DNA from: an uncultured Candidatus Saccharibacteria bacterium
GTDB taxonomy: Bacteria; Patescibacteriota; Minisyncoccia; Phycocordibacterales; UBA9973
Reading direction: 5' to 3'
DNA: 60,668 nt
Assembly (NCBI GenBank): GCA_964402895.1
Contig: CAYODR010000004.1
Location: 34,209-94,876, forward strand
Shown: in pieces, positions 1-55,433 of the stretch
How positions within the stretch are numbered: position 1 is the first letter of the stretch
Layout: each line of letters starts with the position of its first letter
Position numbers and translations under genes: made by a program
The notes under the pieces: model-generated
Told to the model about the DNA's origin: nothing
Seen by the model: the letters and a program-made list of their open reading frames with translations, nothing else
Databases searched by the model: none

Positions 1-55
1 GAATAAAAATCCCCTTAGGGGGGATTTTTATTTGGGTGACCAAAGAAGTCAAACT
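1..55. repeat. 55-nt direct repeat, copy 1; contains a palindromic terminator-like hairpin (AAAAATCCCC / GGGGATTTTT)
   Basis: Bases 1-55 are identical to 196-250 by direct reading. The repeat may extend left of the window edge. Confidence 0.9.
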
Positions 56-4185: not shown

Positions 4186-4695
4186 ATGAAATATGTAGTT
4201 GGTTTAGTTTTTACGATTATTATAGTAGGTACTTTGATTTGGGCTAGTTATATAAAGAAAGAAAGGGTGGGTGGTGATAGCACTTATTCACAATCCCAAG
4301 CAGAGGTTTTGATTGAAGATTTAGAAGATGATTCTATCTCACAAAAATTAGAAGTTAAGAATAATACACAAGATATGAAAATAGAAATTACAAAAGAGGG
4401 AACAGGCGCGTCTATTGTAAATGGACAAAATGCTGTAATGCTTTATACGGGCAAGCTTGAAGATGGTACTGTATTTGATTCTACTTCAAATAGAAATAAT
4501 GACCCCTTTATTTTTAATTTAGGTGCAGGTATGGTGATTAAAGGTTGGGACGAAGGAGTACTTGGAATGAAGGTTGGTGAAGAGAGAACTCTGACTATTC
4601 CTTATGATATGGCATATGGAGAAAATGGTATCCCAGGAGTTATTCCACCAAAATCAACACTTATCTTTGATGTTGTGCTATTAGAAATAAGATAA
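4186..4695 (+). CDS. membrane-anchored FKBP-type peptidyl-prolyl cis-trans isomerase
   Basis: N-terminal TM helix, then [13 protein letters not shown]...[33 protein letters not shown]. Confidence 0.85.
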
Positions 4696-34772: not shown

Positions 34773-35291
34773 ATGAAAGTGTTAAATAATATTGCTTTTA
34801 TTGATGGGCAAAATTTGTACTTAGGATCTACTAAAAATGGCTGGAGTATAGATTTATTAAAATTTAGAATTTATTTAAAAGATAAATACAATATTTCCGA
34901 GGCCTATTACTTTTTAGGTTTTATTAATCCTGAATATTATGAATTGTATTCAGAAATACAAAAATCAGGTTTTATAATTCAATTCAGAGAGCACAATACT
35001 AATATGGTTGGAGTAAAGAAGGGGAATGTAGATACTGATATTGTTTTTTCCATAATGAAATCATTAATAGATGAATATAGTATGGATGGTGTTGTTTTAG
35101 TTTCCGGTGATGGTGATTATAAAAAAGTTGTGGATTATCTTATTTTGAAAGGAAAACTTAAAAAAGTTTTATTTCCATCAAAAAAATATTCATCTTTATA
35201 TAAAAAAATAACAGTTAAATATTTCGATACTCTTTATTCAGATTTTGTTAGACAAAAAATAGAAAAAAGAAAAAGCGAACTTAGGGACTAG
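34773..35291 (+). CDS. NYN (LabA-like) domain protein, copy 1
   Basis: IAFIDGQNLYLG...YFLGFI...KKGNVDTDIV...VLVSGDGDY. It is a paralog of the three NYN genes at 52.9-54.9 kb. Confidence 0.8.
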   Translation: MKVLNNIAFIDGQNLYLGSTKNGWSIDLLKFRIYLKDKYNISEAYYFLGFINPEYYELYSEIQKSGFIIQFREHNTNMVGVKKGNVDTDIVFSIMKSLIDEYSMDGVVLVSGDGDYKKVVDYLILKGKLKKVLFPSKKYSSLYKKITVKYFDTLYSDFVRQKIEKRKSELRD

Positions 35292-35384
35292 CCCGTTCGC
35301 TTGCTTTTTCGTGGTAATATATAGATTATACTATAATATTACTAAAATAAGCAAGTTTTATTTGTCAAAAATGGGGAAATGGGG

Positions 35385-50933: not shown

Positions 50934-52208
50934 TTAATGTGTAAATATAATATGAATTGTTTTTAGTACTATCCCAATATCTAATAGGGGGTTTTTGTTT
51001 TTTATGTAATATAAATCAAATTCAAATTTTTCTTTTGAATCATCTACTGTTCTTGCGTATCTATATTTTACTTGTGCCCAGCCAGTAAAGCCTGGCCTTA
51101 CATAGTGTCTTAGATAGTAGTATGGTATTTGTTGTTCTAGTTCTCTTACAAACTCTGGTCTTTCAGGTCTTGGCCCTACAAGTGCAATATCTCCTTTAAT
51201 AATATTTATCATTTGAGGTATTTCATCTATATGGGTTTTTCTTAGGATTGAGCCTAGTGGTGTTATACGCTTATCTTTTTGTGTTGCCCATGTTGCTCCT
51301 GACTTTTCAGCATCTTTAAGCATTGAACGTATTTTATATACTCTAAAAATCTTTCCATTTTTTCCGACTCTTTCTTGAGAGTAGAATATAGGTGATCCGT
51401 CTTCTATAAATCTAGCAAACATAGCTAATAATAGGATGGGGGAAGATATGATGAGTACTAGACTTGCAACAAGAATTTCTATAATTCTATAAATTATATG
51501 TACGCCAATATTACGTTCTTTTGATATGTAGAAAAGAGCCTTGTCCTCATTCATTGTTGATAGGTTTATTTTACTAAACATTATTTCATAAGCTTTATGA
51601 AGTGGAAGAATTTCTGCATTTAGTTTTTGAGAAATTTTTATTAAAAGTTTTGTTTCTATATTTTCTGCTATGATTGTATTCACTCTTTTTATATTTATAG
51701 GTTCTGATAGCGATTTAATATGCAAACAAATAAAACCTATTTGAGGATGGTTTTCTATTTCTGATTTGAGTTTGTATATAAGTTGAGTATCTCCTATTAA
51801 AAGAATTGATTTGCGAAATTGTTTTGCAAAGAGGTGATAATAAAGTCTTCTCCATAGGATCGTTAGAATAAAAGAAAGTACGCCCACTATCAGCAAGTTT
51901 GTTTTTGGTGCAATTTTAGTCTGAGGAAGTAGATAAAAAAATAAAACCCCTACTACAATATTTGTAGTTATACCGATAGATAATAATCCTATATTTGTAG
52001 GGGAGGGGTTTATTTTTTTTATTTCATAAAGATCAAAAATAAAGAAGGTAATGAGCCATATTAAAAACAACCAAAAGAATGGCATAAACTGTTCTGAAAT
52101 TGCTTGCTCTGCAAAACCTTCAAAACGAATTCTTGTCATTATAAAAAAAGACAATAGAAAAGCGGCAATATCTCCTAAAACTAGTATAAAAATCCGCTGA
52201 GAAAACAT
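50934..52208 (-). CDS. undecaprenyl-phosphate sugar-phosphate transferase (WbaP/ExoY-like bacterial sugar transferase)
   Basis: SPIFYSQERVGKNGKIFRVYKIRSM...DEIPQMINIIKGDIALVGPRP. Confidence 0.85.
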   Translation of the reverse strand: MFSQRIFILVLGDIAAFLLSFFIMTRIRFEGFAEQAISEQFMPFFWLFLIWLITFFIFDLYEIKKINPSPTNIGLLSIGITTNIVVGVLFFYLLPQTKIAPKTNLLIVGVLSFILTILWRRLYYHLFAKQFRKSILLIGDTQLIYKLKSEIENHPQIGFICLHIKSLSEPINIKRVNTIIAENIETKLLIKISQKLNAEILPLHKAYEIMFSKINLSTMNEDKALFYISKERNIGVHIIYRIIEILVASLVLIISSPILLLAMFARFIEDGSPIFYSQERVGKNGKIFRVYKIRSMLKDAEKSGATWATQKDKRITPLGSILRKTHIDEIPQMINIIKGDIALVGPRPERPEFVRELEQQIPYYYLRHYVRPGFTGWAQVKYRYARTVDDSKEKFEFDLYYIKNKNPLLDIGIVLKTIHIIFTH

Positions 52209-52314
52209 GTGCTCATTGTATAATATTTTAATTATTTGTAAATGGTCGAGCTATTTTTATAAATATAAAGTGTAAATAATATTTTATCAAAATTTGAACA
52301 CACTTTCGTATTAT

Positions 52315-52710
52315 ATGAGTATAAAAAGATTTAAAAAATGGTTTTTAATTAAAGAAAAGATAGATGAGCAAAATATAAATAAACTCCCGCTATTTTCAGA
52401 AGGAGAGGTCTGGTGGTGTGGAATAGGTGAGAATGTTGGTATTGAAATTAATGGAAAGAGTGAAGTATTTTCTCGTCCTATAGTTATTTATAAGAAATTA
52501 AGTCGTATGGGTTTTATGGCAATCCCTATGTCTACTCAGTTTAAAAATGGTAGTTGGTATGTATCTATTTATTTTCAAGAAAAGCAGGTTGTATTAAATA
52601 TTTCTCAAGCTCGCGTAGTAAGTTCTTCAAGGTTATATTCTAGGATAGGATCACTTGATGAAAATGATATAAAGATTTTGAAAGAAAAATTTATAGAATT
52701 ATATAAATAA
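52315..52710 (+). CDS. MazF/PemK-fold protein (long N-terminal variant)
   Basis: EGEVWWCGIGENVGIEINGKSEVFSRPIVIYKKL...AIPMSTQ...LNISQARVVSSSRL..RIGSLD follows the PemK pattern G-[DE]-V-[WY]..G.E..G.RP..V ... Q.R..S..RL. The start was set to the ATG after the shared leader. Confidence 0.7.
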   Translation: MSIKRFKKWFLIKEKIDEQNINKLPLFSEGEVWWCGIGENVGIEINGKSEVFSRPIVIYKKLSRMGFMAIPMSTQFKNGSWYVSIYFQEKQVVLNISQARVVSSSRLYSRIGSLDENDIKILKEKFIELYK

Positions 52711-52884
52711 AAAAACTTATCCTCATAGATAAGTTTTTTTATTTATATTTTCCTCTATCTCTCAATAGAGGTACGCGGGAAACCCCGAATATGTTTTTAG
52801 TATAACAAAAATACTTAAAGGGTCAAATCAAAAAAGTGAATACGATTTTATCAAAATTTGAACACACTTTCGTATCATATAGAT

Positions 52885-53397
52885 ATGGGAAATAATTATG
52901 CATATATTGATGCTTCAAATCTTAGGTTCGGTATTTTACAAAATAATTGGGAGATAGACTATAAATCTTTTAGATCTTGGCTTAGAGACAAGTTTGGTAT
53001 TCAAAAAGCAATTCTTTTTATAGGATTTATTTCTGAGAATATTGATATTTATAATCATTTAAAATCAATTGGATATGATATTGTTTTTCGCCCTACTTTA
53101 AAAAATAAATATGGAGAAACAAAAGGGAATGTAGATGGTGAACTAATACTTCAAATAGCAAAAGATTTCTATGAACAAAAACTTAAATCAGTAATTCTTG
53201 TTTCTGGGGATGACGATTATTGTTGTATCGTTGAGTTTCTTAAAGATAAAAAAATACCCATTACGATAGTATCACCTAATAAAAAATACCTCTCACTCCT
53301 TCTTAAAAGAACTAATGTACCAATTGTTATCTTGGAAGATATGAAAAATAAACTTCAGAAAAAACCTAAAATGAAAAAACCCCCAGATAGACCGTAA
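52885..53397 (+). CDS. NYN (LabA-like) domain protein, copy 2
   Basis: NNYAYIDASNL...LFIGFI...KGNVDGELIL...ILVSGDDDY. The ATG sits directly after the shared leader. Confidence 0.8.
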   Translation: MGNNYAYIDASNLRFGILQNNWEIDYKSFRSWLRDKFGIQKAILFIGFISENIDIYNHLKSIGYDIVFRPTLKNKYGETKGNVDGELILQIAKDFYEQKLKSVILVSGDDDYCCIVEFLKDKKIPITIVSPNKKYLSLLLKRTNVPIVILEDMKNKLQKKPKMKKPPDRP

Positions 53398-53516
53398 TCT
53401 ATCAAGGGTTTTTTTCTTGTTTATAGTTTTATTATATCAAATTTATTTCTAGCGTCAATCTTAAATTGTGAATACAACTTTATCAAAATTTGAACTCTAT
53501 TTCGTATCATATAGAT

Positions 53517-53996
53517 ATGGAAAATAATTATGCATATATTGATGGGCAGAATTTGTATTTGTCTATAAAAATATTAGGCTGGAAAATAGACTGGAAAAGA
53601 TTTAGAGTTTATTTAAAAGAGAATTATTTAATAGAAAGAGCTTTTTTATTTATTGGGTATATTGATGGTAATAATAATTTATATTCAAGATTGCAAGATG
53701 CTGGTTTTATTTGTATTTTTAAGCCAGTATTAAAATATAAAAATGGAATAATAAAAGGTAATGTTGATACAGAGTTGGTTTTGCATACTATGATACATTT
53801 TAAGGATTTTAAGAAAGCTGTTTTAATTACTGGTGATGGGGATTTTTATTGTTTGGTTCAATATCTTTTAGAAAAAGATAAATTAAAAACAGTACTTGTT
53901 CCTAATAGAGATAAATATTCTGCATTATTAAAAAAGTTTGCTAAGAAAAACATTGCTTTTATGAATGATCTTAAAAATTTGATAGGTGAAAAATAA
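53517..53996 (+). CDS. NYN (LabA-like) domain protein, copy 3
   Basis: NNYAYIDGQNLYL...LFIGYI...KGNVDTELVL...VLITGDGDF. Confidence 0.8.
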   Translation: MENNYAYIDGQNLYLSIKILGWKIDWKRFRVYLKENYLIERAFLFIGYIDGNNNLYSRLQDAGFICIFKPVLKYKNGIIKGNVDTELVLHTMIHFKDFKKAVLITGDGDFYCLVQYLLEKDKLKTVLVPNRDKYSALLKKFAKKNIAFMNDLKNLIGEK

Positions 53997-54036
53997 AAAG
54001 GACCCTACAAAGACAAAACATTGTAGGGGACTTTTT

Positions 54037-54433
54037 GTGGTGATATTTCTATTATACACATTTAGTATTTTTCAGCAATCTTAAAATGTGAATATGATTT
54101 TATCAAAATTTGAACGCTATATTTGTACCATATACATATGGATATATAAAAAAGCCTCCTTAGGTAGTTAGCCGTTCGGATGCTTTTTCGTCGTAATATA
54201 TTTCCATTATACACATCTAGTCTTTTTCAGCAATCTTAAAATGTGAATATAAAATTTTAGAATCTTTAATAAAAGAAATTATATAAAAACGAATGCTGGT
54301 GTGATTTCCACACCAGCATTCTCGGAGGCCAAAGCCATAATATCTTTATTATACACACCCACACATTTTGAGCAAATCAAAAAAGTGAATACGACTTTAT
54401 CAAAATTTGAACACACTTTCGTATCATGTAGAT
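54037..54433 (+). pseudogene. two gutted cassettes (junction plus start codon fused to gene 3' ends)
   Basis: After a full junction the reading frame is only ATG GAT ATA TAA (54138-54149). A terminator module follows that closely resembles the one after NYN copy 1 (35270-35310). A second truncated junction (54190-54258) is fused to a 3' end resembling that of the MazF-like gene (AGAAATTATATAA). Confidence 0.55.
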
Positions 54434-54946
54434 ATGAAAAATAATTACGCATTTATTGATGGAGCAAACTTACACAAAGGAGTTGATTCTTTAGGTTGGA
54501 ATTTAGATTATCAAAAGTTTTTTATATGGATAAAAGAAAAATATAAAATTAAAAAAGTTTTTATATTTTTAGGTTATATAGATAAATATCGTAATCTTTA
54601 TAAGTTATTAGAGAGATATGGTTATATAATTATTTTCAAGGAAGTAGTTTATGATATTCACGGAAAAGCAAAAGGGAATTGTGATGCAGATCTTGTTTTG
54701 CATGCTGTCATTAATTATTATGAAAAGTATTTTGAAAAAGTTTTATTAGTTTCTAGTGATGGGGATTATTCATCTTTAGTAAAATTTCTATTAAAGAATA
54801 ATAGTTTAATATCAATAGTATCTCCAGCAAATGAGAAAAAGTGCTCAATTTTATTAAAGAGAACCGGTGCGAAGATATCTTATATTAAAGATCAGTATGA
54901 AAAACTTAGAATAAAAAAAGCCCCCGATAGAGACAAAACTCTATAA
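54434..54946 (+). CDS. NYN (LabA-like) domain protein, copy 4
   Basis: NNYAFIDGANLH...IFLGYI...KGNCDADLVL...LLVSSDGDY. Confidence 0.8.
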   Translation: MKNNYAFIDGANLHKGVDSLGWNLDYQKFFIWIKEKYKIKKVFIFLGYIDKYRNLYKLLERYGYIIIFKEVVYDIHGKAKGNCDADLVLHAVINYYEKYFEKVLLVSSDGDYSSLVKFLLKNNSLISIVSPANEKKCSILLKRTGAKISYIKDQYEKLRIKKAPDRDKTL

Positions 54947-55127
54947 GGGTCTTTTTTGTGGTGATATATCCATTATACACATCCATTTATTTTGAGCAAA
55001 CCCAAAATGTGAATACGACTTTATCTAGATTTTATATCTATCACCGCCGACCAAGGGTCGGCGGTATTAGATGGTGAGGGGAGTAATGTATTGATACTAG
55101 TACTCGTCATAGATAGTATATATACAT

Positions 55128-55286
55128 ATGAAAAAAATATTATCAATGATAATTGAATACTCTAGTCAGATATCTTTGTTTCAAAAAAACTCTGTTCAAA
55201 AAGAAACAAAAAAAATTCTTTCAAAATACCACAAGACTTTTAAAGATCTAGCTGTTTATGACAGAAAAGGAAAAGTTCGTAATTAA
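55128..55286 (+). CDS. possible 52-aa protein (below the track cutoff), unknown function
   Basis: Hand translation gives MKKILSMIIEYSSQISLFQKNSVQKETKKILSKYHKTFKDLAVYDRKGKVRN. A second short ORF (55258-55350) overlaps it in another frame. Confidence 0.3.
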   Translation: MKKILSMIIEYSSQISLFQKNSVQKETKKILSKYHKTFKDLAVYDRKGKVRN

Positions 55287-55433
55287 GTACCGGACTTTTG
55301 ATGATGTAAAAGATGATTTGAAGAATTGGATAAAAGAAAATTCAAAATAGGGCAAAATTCGTATTTTAATAGAATACAGATTTTGTTTTTGTAAACTTTG
55401 GGCTTCAGACGCAAATTGGTATGATATAGGCGT

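Follow-up and report, generated by a model that had tools for sequence, protein, structure and literature searches.

Predicted convergent small RNAs at the 3' ends of MazF-like and NYN RNase genes in a Saccharibacteria genome

In the Fst/par loci (pAD1 par and S. mutans fst-Sm/srSm), the mRNA of the toxin and a short antitoxin RNA run towards each other from separate promoters and end at a common factor-independent bidirectional terminator, according to the account of these loci in PMC3543317. Toxin genes that stand alone are also known, and the survey in PMC2701414 puts solo toxins at more than 50% of genes within the biggest families. For LabA-like NYN proteins (PF01936, COG1432), the PIN-superfamily classification gives function unknown and, in the passages of PMC5499597 that concern them, no toxin-antitoxin link. 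The DNA analysed here (the window) is a stretch of 60,668 nucleotides (nt) from an uncultured Candidatus Saccharibacteria bacterium (C4:34209-94876), whose genome of 660 kb, 99.72% complete, is of the Patescibacteria or Candidate Phyla Radiation (CPR) kind. It carries an array of one MazF/PemK-like and three NYN RNase genes, which a sequence-only reading had described as toxin-type RNases with no antitoxin-sized partner. The data suggest that these genes are not partnerless, as each ends against a predicted small RNA gene of 50-85 nt on the opposite strand. The geometry of the RNA promoters is conserved, the RNA structures covary and can be assigned to a strand, and RNAs and RNase families lead to each other when either is searched for. 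The association of RNase gene and convergent RNA appears to be kept across many CPR bacteria and looks like an undescribed RNA-antitoxin system.

Small RNAs predicted opposite the RNase genes

The array consists of six head-to-tail units in the order MazF-like gene, NYN1, NYN2, a gutted NYN gene, a gutted MazF unit of a second type, and NYN3; the genes of units 4 and 5 are decayed. Each unit is laid out as an upstream repeat (module B), the gene, a convergent predicted small RNA and the promoter of that RNA (Table 1). Since the RNA lies at the 3' end of the RNase gene, the RNA in a junction occupies its left half and is the partner of the gene to the left.

The MazF-like protein has a long N-terminus, and 412 confirmed loci of this subfamily were found in a collection of species-representative genomes, mostly in Saccharibacteria and other CPR bacteria; the 80 loci of this family counted below are the best 80 of the 412. 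Downstream of the homologues come the stop codon, an A/T run, a variable hairpin, a small conserved hairpin, AATAT, and then a -10 and a -35 box on the opposite strand. When scored against a sigma-70-like consensus of 12 positions (TTGACA-16..18-TATAAT), a convergent promoter-like site of at least 10/12 was present within 160 nt downstream at 69 of 80 loci; same-strand sites reached this score at 8 of 80, and control regions at 1-3 of 80. The model of the MazF-type RNA (R1), which was built from 58 of the sequences it was run on, matched all 80 loci plus the window. Among the 82 distinct upstream regions anchored by R1, 71 reached 10/12 (22 were perfect) against 8 of 1640 shuffles, and in 78 the spacing from the -10 box to RNA position 1 (5' AUAUU) was exactly 6 nt.

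Non-redundant copies of the MazF-type RNA (58) fold into a 5' tail, hairpin A, hairpin B and a U run, with the exception of L027, which was trimmed short. In an ordinary MAFFT alignment, hairpin A contains zero broken pairs (58 x 4 cells), with compensatory changes from C-G to U-A in 13, from G-C to A-U in 5 and from G-C to C-G in 4. A model-fitted alignment, which leans towards structure, has 89.8% of its cells paired compared with 75.7% in shuffles, and a covariation score of 0.424 compared with 0.192; none of 500 shuffles scored as high, and slid controls were beaten too. The four-base loops of hairpin B (n=43) read as 27 GNRA and 3 UNCG loops on the antisense strand and as 0 and 0 on the mRNA strand, which places the structure on the antisense strand. 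A thermodynamic strand test of this RNA was null (-18.9 versus -18.2 kcal/mol, with 29 G-U pairs on either strand in the minimum free energy folds). The M2-type RNA of unit 5 can be aligned with the RNA behind the genome's second MazF-like gene and with five other loci.

A comparable picture was obtained for the NYN-type RNA (model R2). The sequence profile of the NYN 3' module matched 28 of 29 homologous loci and the five copies in the window. Compensatory changes were present in 11 of 16 pairs of the MAFFT alignment, 93.0% of cells were paired (77.8% in shuffles), and the covariation score was 0.522 against 0.225 when shuffled (0/500 as high) and 0.09-0.19 when slid. The pairs comprised 66 G-U and 5 A-C on the antisense strand, and this places the structure there. 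Promoters of at least 10/12 were found in 19 of 31 regions and in 1 of 620 shuffles. The last codons of the NYN subfamily, which encode a conserved KAPDxDxT tail, lie within the antisense RNA hairpin, and the hairpin is retained although the open reading frame (ORF) stops short in NYN2, L116, L126, L129, L130, L132, L141 and L142. Selection therefore acts on the RNA and not on the peptide alone.

Searches that began from the RNA led back to the genes. Run alone on 150 randomly drawn genomes of the phylum, R1 gave 10 matches in 5 genomes, of which 8 lay beside a convergent full MazF-like gene, 1 beside a remnant and 1 was an orphan. R2 gave 17 matches in 16 genomes, with a convergent NYN homologue at 13; in this sample, the NYN subfamily is carried by 41 other genomes, and R2 matched in 16 at the strict setting. 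Decayed RNase genes with a retained RNA are recurrent, as in units 4 and 5 of the window. At L031, L032, L037 and L038 (~4264-4328), an R1-type RNA and promoter lie 84-88 nt downstream of an unrelated gene for a multi-pass membrane protein of 181-183 amino acids (aa), which may be either a third partner family or the neighbour of an orphan RNA.

Rfam returned nothing on the small-RNA regions, whether in the window (E<=1) or in 10 homologous loci of the MazF type (E<=0.1), and in the open-access literature no paper was found on MazF/PemK or NYN genes with convergent small RNAs, nor on such RNAs in CPR bacteria. A 'pemK RNA motif' has reportedly been published; no text on this motif was found, and no Rfam match suggests identity. 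The term has 0 occurrences in the main text of PMC5737381.

RNase families and the search for protein partners

The first ORF of the array matches PF02452 (PemK_toxin) with E 8.9e-7 and 29.5 bits (cut-off 23.1). The proposed placement of this protein in a long-N-terminus PemK subfamily held. In the alignment, Arg54-Pro55 and Ser/Thr 73-74 fall on the RP and IT-A-Q positions of EndoA from B. subtilis, which we take to be the catalytic positions of the MazF family; R54-P55 is invariant in 17 of 17 aligned sequences, and a Ser/Thr follows P71. An AlphaFold model (predicted local distance difference test score, pLDDT, 83.4) has the MazF barrel plus an extra N-terminal helix, and the top 50 Foldseek matches in the PDB are MazF, EndoA and MoxT chains (TM 0.6-0.75, probability 1.0). 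The profile match and the model thus assign the protein to the PemK/MazF family, with a predicted MazF/Kid beta-barrel fold. The defence library PADLOC returned nothing for this gene, and NCBIfam gave no match. A phage origin was considered and rejected, as just 8 relatives lie in viral contigs; one of them is close, and that one also has an R1 RNA.

The genome's second MazF-like copy scores higher (PF02452, 55.3 bits). On contig C3 (L110 395-2886), a XerC/D-like recombinase, this second long-N-terminus gene (130 aa), rpsO and a core NYN gene stand in a row, and behind the MazF-like gene come a hairpin and, convergent with it, a TTGACA-16-TATACT promoter, that is, an M2-type RNA. Elsewhere in the family, L045 4366-4727 holds a frameshifted MazF-like pseudogene with its RNA retained, and at L087 618-800 the MazF-type RNA is present in two tandem copies behind one gene.

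NYN1-3 match PF01936 at E 4e-12 to 5e-14 and 47-54 bits (cut-off 24.2), or 47-57 bits when NYN4, a solitary fourth gene of the window, is counted. The acidic positions D9, D84, D109 and D111 do not vary among the 17 aligned sequences; the catalytic residues of both folds, whose loss on alignment would have undermined the sequence-only reading, are therefore kept. PADLOC offered the NYN genes a generic NYN model (PDLC01154) and weak HEC-09 matches only. The NYN proteins of the array share 38-43% identity, with third codon positions at about 50%, and NYN3 is closer to proteins of other CPR bacteria (57-64%) than to its neighbours in the array. This suggests that the NYN genes of the array are old paralogues or separate acquisitions. 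They belong to a CPR group of proteins of about 176 aa with at least 2456 cluster representatives, which is patchily distributed (47 of 151 genomes of the order, with 1-4 copies, several with internal stops). A separate, higher-scoring core NYN gene, distinct from this subfamily, is present in 59 of 61 relatives. In NYN2, nine codons past the TAA (53991-54026) continue in the same frame, resemble the conserved tail and end at a second stop; the TAA would be either a recent truncation or possibly a read-through site.

The absence of a protein partner was borne out. No adjacent co-transcribed protein antitoxin gene of the type II kind was found. In the whole genome, PF04014 (MazE) gave nothing above its cut-off (best 13.7 bits versus 24.7), and PF01402 (RHH_1) and PF02604 (PhdYeFM) gave no match at E<=1. 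The description of the spacers needs correction, as they had been given as about 120-175 nt without an ORF beyond a few codons. They measure 174 nt (MazF-NYN1), 119 nt (NYN1-NYN2) and 437 nt (NYN2-NYN3, which holds both gutted units), and six frames of 31-57 aa lie in or across them, at 52823-52918(-), 53986-54084(+), 54062-54214(-), 54279-54452(-), 54301-54444(+) and 54958-55077(+). All six lie on the repeated non-coding modules, and 0/6 matched Pfam at E<=0.1. In the wider family, all-against-all clustering of 704 neighbouring frames yielded no conserved antitoxin-sized ORF; the recurrent small frames sit on conserved non-coding DNA, and the neighbours are varied housekeeping genes. The long-N-terminus PemK subfamily is thus generally without a protein partner.

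A proposed mechanism and its rivals

In the mechanism proposed here, an RNase gene and an opposite-strand small RNA gene would be the two halves of a compact module. A separate, near-consensus promoter of the sigma-70 type would drive the small RNA in the direction of the RNase gene, and the predicted terminator hairpin of this RNA abuts the 3' end of the RNase ORF in the MazF type and overlaps it in the NYN type. The bidirectional terminator is common to mRNA and RNA in the window and in the NYN family, so their 3' ends would be mutually complementary. A strong constitutive antisense RNA would pair with the 3' end of the RNase mRNA, RNase III would cut the duplex, and little RNase would be made. 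If transcription failed, for example when the locus is lost or under stress or phage attack, the short RNA would be gone first and the RNase would be expressed. Module B would probably carry the RNase gene's own promoter or operator. The Fst/par-like layout and the presence of RNase III in the genome (118.7 bits) favour antisense control through the 3' overlap, and on balance we hold it somewhat probable that the predicted small RNAs are cis-encoded RNA antitoxins or negative regulators of a type I-like kind. Transcription of the RNAs, toxicity of the RNases and the antisense step itself are what we infer. The sequence-only reading had raised the idea of an RNA antitoxin from the junctions; the idea of an RNA gained strong indirect support, and the upstream leader as its source did not, as the candidate is the convergent 3' antisense RNA.

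Several results weigh against this mechanism. Among 23 non-redundant MazF-type loci of the 80 (after a start-codon filter), pairing of the RNA with the start region had a duplex energy of -20.8 for cognate and -22.3 for non-cognate pairs, and a translational block of the Fst type is therefore unsupported. Most MazF-type RNAs overlap the ORF by a few bases, and most MazF loci have no T run after the hairpins on the mRNA strand, where the extent of the duplex is one that we infer. Wobble counts of the MazF type taken alone are mildly asymmetric (58 G-U versus 33 A-C). When the search began from the gene, R1 was found at 8 of 23 MazF-like genes of the 150-genome sample under strict filters, and switching the filters off added 3 of the other 15. 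On inspection by eye, the same layout is visible at most of the genes left over and several have an M2 RNA, which is a weaker statement. In addition, PF01936 proteins are not known toxins in the classification cited above (PMC5499597), which lists their function as unknown, and the earlier label of the NYN genes as toxin-type RNases thus has no basis in the literature. Finally, strongly conserved unpaired sequence in the RNA fits protein binding better than pure antisense action.

This last point makes a type III-like arrangement the main rival, in which the folded small RNA would not act on the mRNA but attach directly to the RNase protein, serving as its inhibitor or pseudo-substrate in the manner of ToxI with ToxN, a protein with a MazF/Kid-like fold. 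Unpaired or loop sequence is highly conserved across distant lineages; in the MazF type this concerns the 5' AUAUUCGGG and the sequence of hairpin A, and in the NYN type the tail at the 5' end and the loop of the hairpin, and both ends of the MazF-type RNA carry a short A-pyrimidine-A-U-U-like motif. The minimal overlap between this RNA and its ORF points the same way. However, the RNA is single-copy and convergent with its own promoter and terminator, whereas antitoxins of type III are tandem repeats that lie upstream and that the toxin processes, and the only tandem repeats found are three 2-copy coincidences of 10-12 nt inside ORFs. The R1-type RNA near a membrane-protein gene at four loci also fits a portable antisense or 3'-end module better, and a type III-like arrangement is considered unlikely. 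It is improbable that the RNases are non-toxic RNA-processing or defence nucleases and that the convergent promoter and hairpin serve as an insulator or 3'-end device against read-through. This would suit the lack of a documented toxin role for PF01936, the near-universal, different and higher-scoring NYN gene (59 of 61 genomes), the general frequency of solo toxin homologues (PMC2701414) and the housekeeping neighbours of many MazF-like genes. However, the RNA modules are family-specific and move with the RNase gene into many neighbourhoods, the RNAs outlast the decay of the gene, which an insulator for that gene does not explain, and the catalytic residues are intact. The patchy, multi-copy distribution of the NYN subfamily with its frequent internal stops is also the profile of an accessory or addictive gene.

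The upstream repeat was weighed in the same way. Module B is 55-60 nt long and 82-97% identical over the 60 nt before the NYN genes (97% between NYN1 and NYN3), and the common upstream junction was upheld by a 32-nt core found 4 times at <=3 mismatches against 0 expected. The modules are thus far more alike than the NYN proteins behind them, and NYN3 is nearer to proteins of other CPR bacteria; module B was therefore homogenised or spread recently, among genes that are old paralogues or separate acquisitions. Its presence before genes so divergent, and also before the unrelated MazF-like gene, could mean that module B itself exerts control, either by giving rise to an RNA antitoxin from the leader or by serving as a shared operator for a repressor that acts in trans. 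An 11-bp palindrome occupies the -35/spacer place if the TATCAT 6 nt before the NYN starts is the -10 box, and an operator role would be compatible with antisense control. On the other side, NYN4 has no module B, the consensus folds weakly (-5.7 kcal/mol; 5 sequences gave 2 compensatory pairs), Rfam gave no match, and the putative -10 box of the MazF-like copy abuts the start codon, a different geometry. Module B was not found in the rest of the genome or in 60 relatives, whereas the RNase families and their 3' RNAs are widespread, and so it is not a general partner. We regard control by module B itself as very improbable, and it is more likely the promoter, operator or short leader of the RNase gene. 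The least probable of the explanations is an integron-like or otherwise site-specific cassette array in which the repeats are recombination sites and not regulatory RNAs. Co-oriented short genes between conserved repeats and repeat-to-repeat joints in metagenome contigs would be expected of such an array, but no integrase in the genome exceeded the TIGR02249 cut-off (best match 88.9 bits versus 265, level with control genomes), every unit has its own promoter-like and terminator elements, and the 3' modules are found beside lone genes in hundreds of unrelated contexts. Homologous recombination between repeats accounts for the joints, and the low-depth contigs may be chimeric at repeats.

If antisense control by the convergent RNAs is correct, two covarying, promoter-equipped small RNA families would be added in CPR bacteria, where almost no regulatory RNA has been described, and NYN/LabA proteins would gain a first concrete genetic context. 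Annotation pipelines would no longer call such genes partnerless, and the RNA models can be run on any CPR genome. MazF is the textbook type II toxin, and if the conserved partner of this large subfamily is a small RNA, the boundaries between types I, II and III would blur and many orphan toxins could be explained. A bolder proposal, possible though doubtful, is that CPR bacteria hold a large, as yet unrecognised class of toxin-antitoxin or defence modules in which full-size RNases of at least two unrelated folds (MazF and NYN), possibly with other proteins, are each checked by a convergent RNA of ~50 nt, in its boldest form by an RNA that binds the RNase, and in which arrays are recombination hot spots. 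If the RNA does bind the RNase, the antitoxins of MazF-fold toxins would include both proteins (type II) and RNAs (type III-like), and NYN nucleases would form a new toxin family; in tandem arrays like that of the window, cassettes would be shuffled by recombination between common flanks.

Setting of the array and comparison with known systems

The array lies in a stretch of low G+C content (25-28%, versus 33-39% elsewhere in the window), with minus-strand polysaccharide-synthesis genes on one side and rplJ-rplL on the other. The locus was found in 10 sequencing runs from 4 studies, all of them DNA. Metagenome contigs from other samples (at least 90% likeness) show repeat-to-repeat joints: one jumps from 54050 to 54348 and has lost both decayed units, another jumps from 52823 to 54997 and has lost every NYN unit, and a third has 19 other letters in place of the MazF-like ORF. 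These are low-depth assemblies (depth 3-5) in which chimeras at repeats are possible, and the joints are a hint, and no proof, of cassette gain and loss by recombination between flanks. The contigs of the probable source run stop exactly at module B repeats (52282-52310, 52845-52876 and 54396-54427), which means that the order of units rests on the repeat resolution of the original assembler.

Table 1. Features of the RNase array and of the solitary NYN4 locus (window positions)
Unit	Feature	Position	Strand	Basis
1	Module B copy 1, before MazF-like ORF	52261..52314	+	repeat family; 32-nt core with 1 mismatch
1	MazF/PemK-like RNase gene, 131 aa, N-terminal helix extension	52315..52710	+	PF02452, family alignment, model and PDB matches
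1	Bidirectional terminator (A run, 6-bp hairpin, T run), common to MazF-like mRNA and convergent RNA	52709..52740	.	sequence reading, inverted repeat
1	MazF-type small RNA M1 (5' AUAUU, hairpin A, hairpin B); probably runs to the common terminator, near 52710	52738..52792	-	R1 41.8 bits, E 5.7e-8; fold
1	Promoter of M1 RNA: TTGACC, 16 nt, TATACT, 6 nt to RNA position 1	52799..52826	-	
2	Module B copy 2, upstream of NYN1	52825..52884	+	repeat, core match, alignment
2	NYN1 RNase gene, 170 aa	52885..53397	+	PF01936, alignment
2	NYN-type RNA after NYN1, covers last 26 nt of ORF	53372..53426	-	R2 57.6 bits
2	Promoter of NYN1 RNA: TTGACG, 16 nt, TATAAT	53431..53458	-	
3	Module B copy 3, upstream of NYN2	53457..53516	+	repeat, core match, alignment
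3	NYN2 RNase gene, 159 aa, ended by an in-frame TAA ahead of the tail codons of the family	53517..53996	+	PF01936
3	NYN-type RNA after NYN2	53993..54046	-	R2 61.9 bits
3	Promoter of NYN2 RNA: TTGCTG, 16 nt, TATAAT	54051..54078	-	
4	Module B copy 4 and three-codon remnant of deleted NYN gene (M-D-I-stop, 54136-54147)	54083..54147	+	3' flank homologous to that of NYN4
4	Orphan NYN-type RNA of decayed unit	54146..54199	-	R2 40.6 bits
4	Promoter of orphan RNA: TTGCTG, 16 nt, TATAAT	54206..54233	-	
5	Partial module B, first ~25 nt, gene lost	54238..54262	+	alignment
5	Orphan M2-type RNA (small UUCG-like hairpin, UCCGAG, 13-14-bp terminator hairpin, U run)	54283..54345	-	terminator scan, fold, alignment
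5	Promoter of M2-type RNA: TTGCTC, 16 nt, TATAAT	54348..54375	-	
6	Module B copy 5, upstream of NYN3	54374..54433	+	repeat, core match, alignment
6	NYN3 RNase gene, 170 aa	54434..54946	+	PF01936; 57-64% identity to homologues in other CPR genomes
6	NYN-type RNA after NYN3, covers last 34 nt of ORF	54913..54967	-	R2 74 bits, E 3.6e-14
6	Promoter of NYN3 RNA: TTGCTC, 16 nt, TATAAT	54972..54999	-	
	Partial module B, closes the array	55000..55035	+	alignment
	NYN4, fourth gene of this NYN subfamily, solitary and lacking module B	34773..35291	+	PF01936, E 3e-15
	NYN-type RNA after NYN4 (35267-35320) and promoter TTGCTT, 18 nt, TATAAT (35325-35354)	35267..35354	-	R2 47.6 bits

Some further observations were made around these elements. 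A DnaA-box-like 8-9-mer stands a few bases upstream of the -35 box at many small-RNA promoters, including those of L114, L115 and L136; compared with the reverse complement of TTATCCACA it is perfect in L115 and L136 and agrees at 7-8 of 9 positions elsewhere. In the window such sites (52836-52843, 53468-53475, 54094-54101, 54385-54392 and 55011-55018) form the left edge of module B, and GC skew gave no replication origin at them. NYN1-3 are preceded by a TATCAT box, 6 nt and the ATG, and a -10-like box 6-7 nt before the ATG, without a Shine-Dalgarno sequence, is present at rpsO (L110 2015-2032) and at the sugar transferase gene (52208-52220, minus strand); leaderless mRNAs may be common in this genome. 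Beyond the closing partial module B lie a GC-rich hairpin (55036-55072) and, at 55128-55350, an ORF of 52 aa with a promoter-like site, overlapped by a frame of 30 aa; neither has a Pfam match, and the two are possibly one frameshifted small gene. Directly upstream of rplJ, the segment 56390-56494 gives a sub-threshold match to the ribosomal protein L10 leader (31.2 bits versus a gathering score of 44, E 0.026).

The predicted layout of the array resembles that of the Fst/par loci in its convergent promoters, its bidirectional terminator and its compact cis-encoded modules. A type I system requires a cis-antisense RNA that has its own promoter and overlaps the toxin transcript; the sequence supports a promoter, a terminator, a covarying structure and a strand for the RNAs predicted here. 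However, the known Fst-type toxins are membrane peptides, reported as 50 aa or less, whereas the proteins here are soluble RNase-fold proteins of 131-170 aa, and Fst-type antitoxins pair with the translation start region through direct repeats, a pairing that had no cognate counterpart in the MazF type. SymE/SymR of E. coli is a case in which a cis-antisense RNA controls a nuclease-like toxin and not a membrane peptide, according to the description in PMC1891008. SymR overlaps the 5' end and start region of its target and SymE has an AbrB/MazE-like fold, whereas the overlap here is at the 3' end and the toxin families are others. The type III systems ToxIN, CptIN and TenpIN likewise place an endoribonuclease toxin under RNA control, as is proposed here, but their antitoxins are tandem repeats on the same strand upstream of the toxin gene, in contrast to the single convergent gene of each module in the array.

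The type II systems MazEF and PemIK have a toxin of the same family (PF02452), with the same fold and catalytic positions. The subfamily described here differs in its extra N-terminal helix, its monocistronic gene and the lack of MazE or PemI beside the gene at the 80 loci or in the genome. The solitary MazF of Myxococcus xanthus also lacks an adjacent antitoxin gene; it is reportedly controlled by an unlinked protein, whereas a linked RNA gene is conserved with the toxin candidate here. LabA-like NYN proteins (PF01936, COG1432) have the same domain and the same four acidic residues as NYN1-4, and the classification passages in PMC5499597 assign them no antisense partner or toxin role. The NYN genes of the array belong to a CPR subfamily whose last codons and stop lie inside a conserved antisense-RNA hairpin. 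Within the known range of RNA-controlled toxin modules, what appears to be new here is the toxin families and their arrangement.

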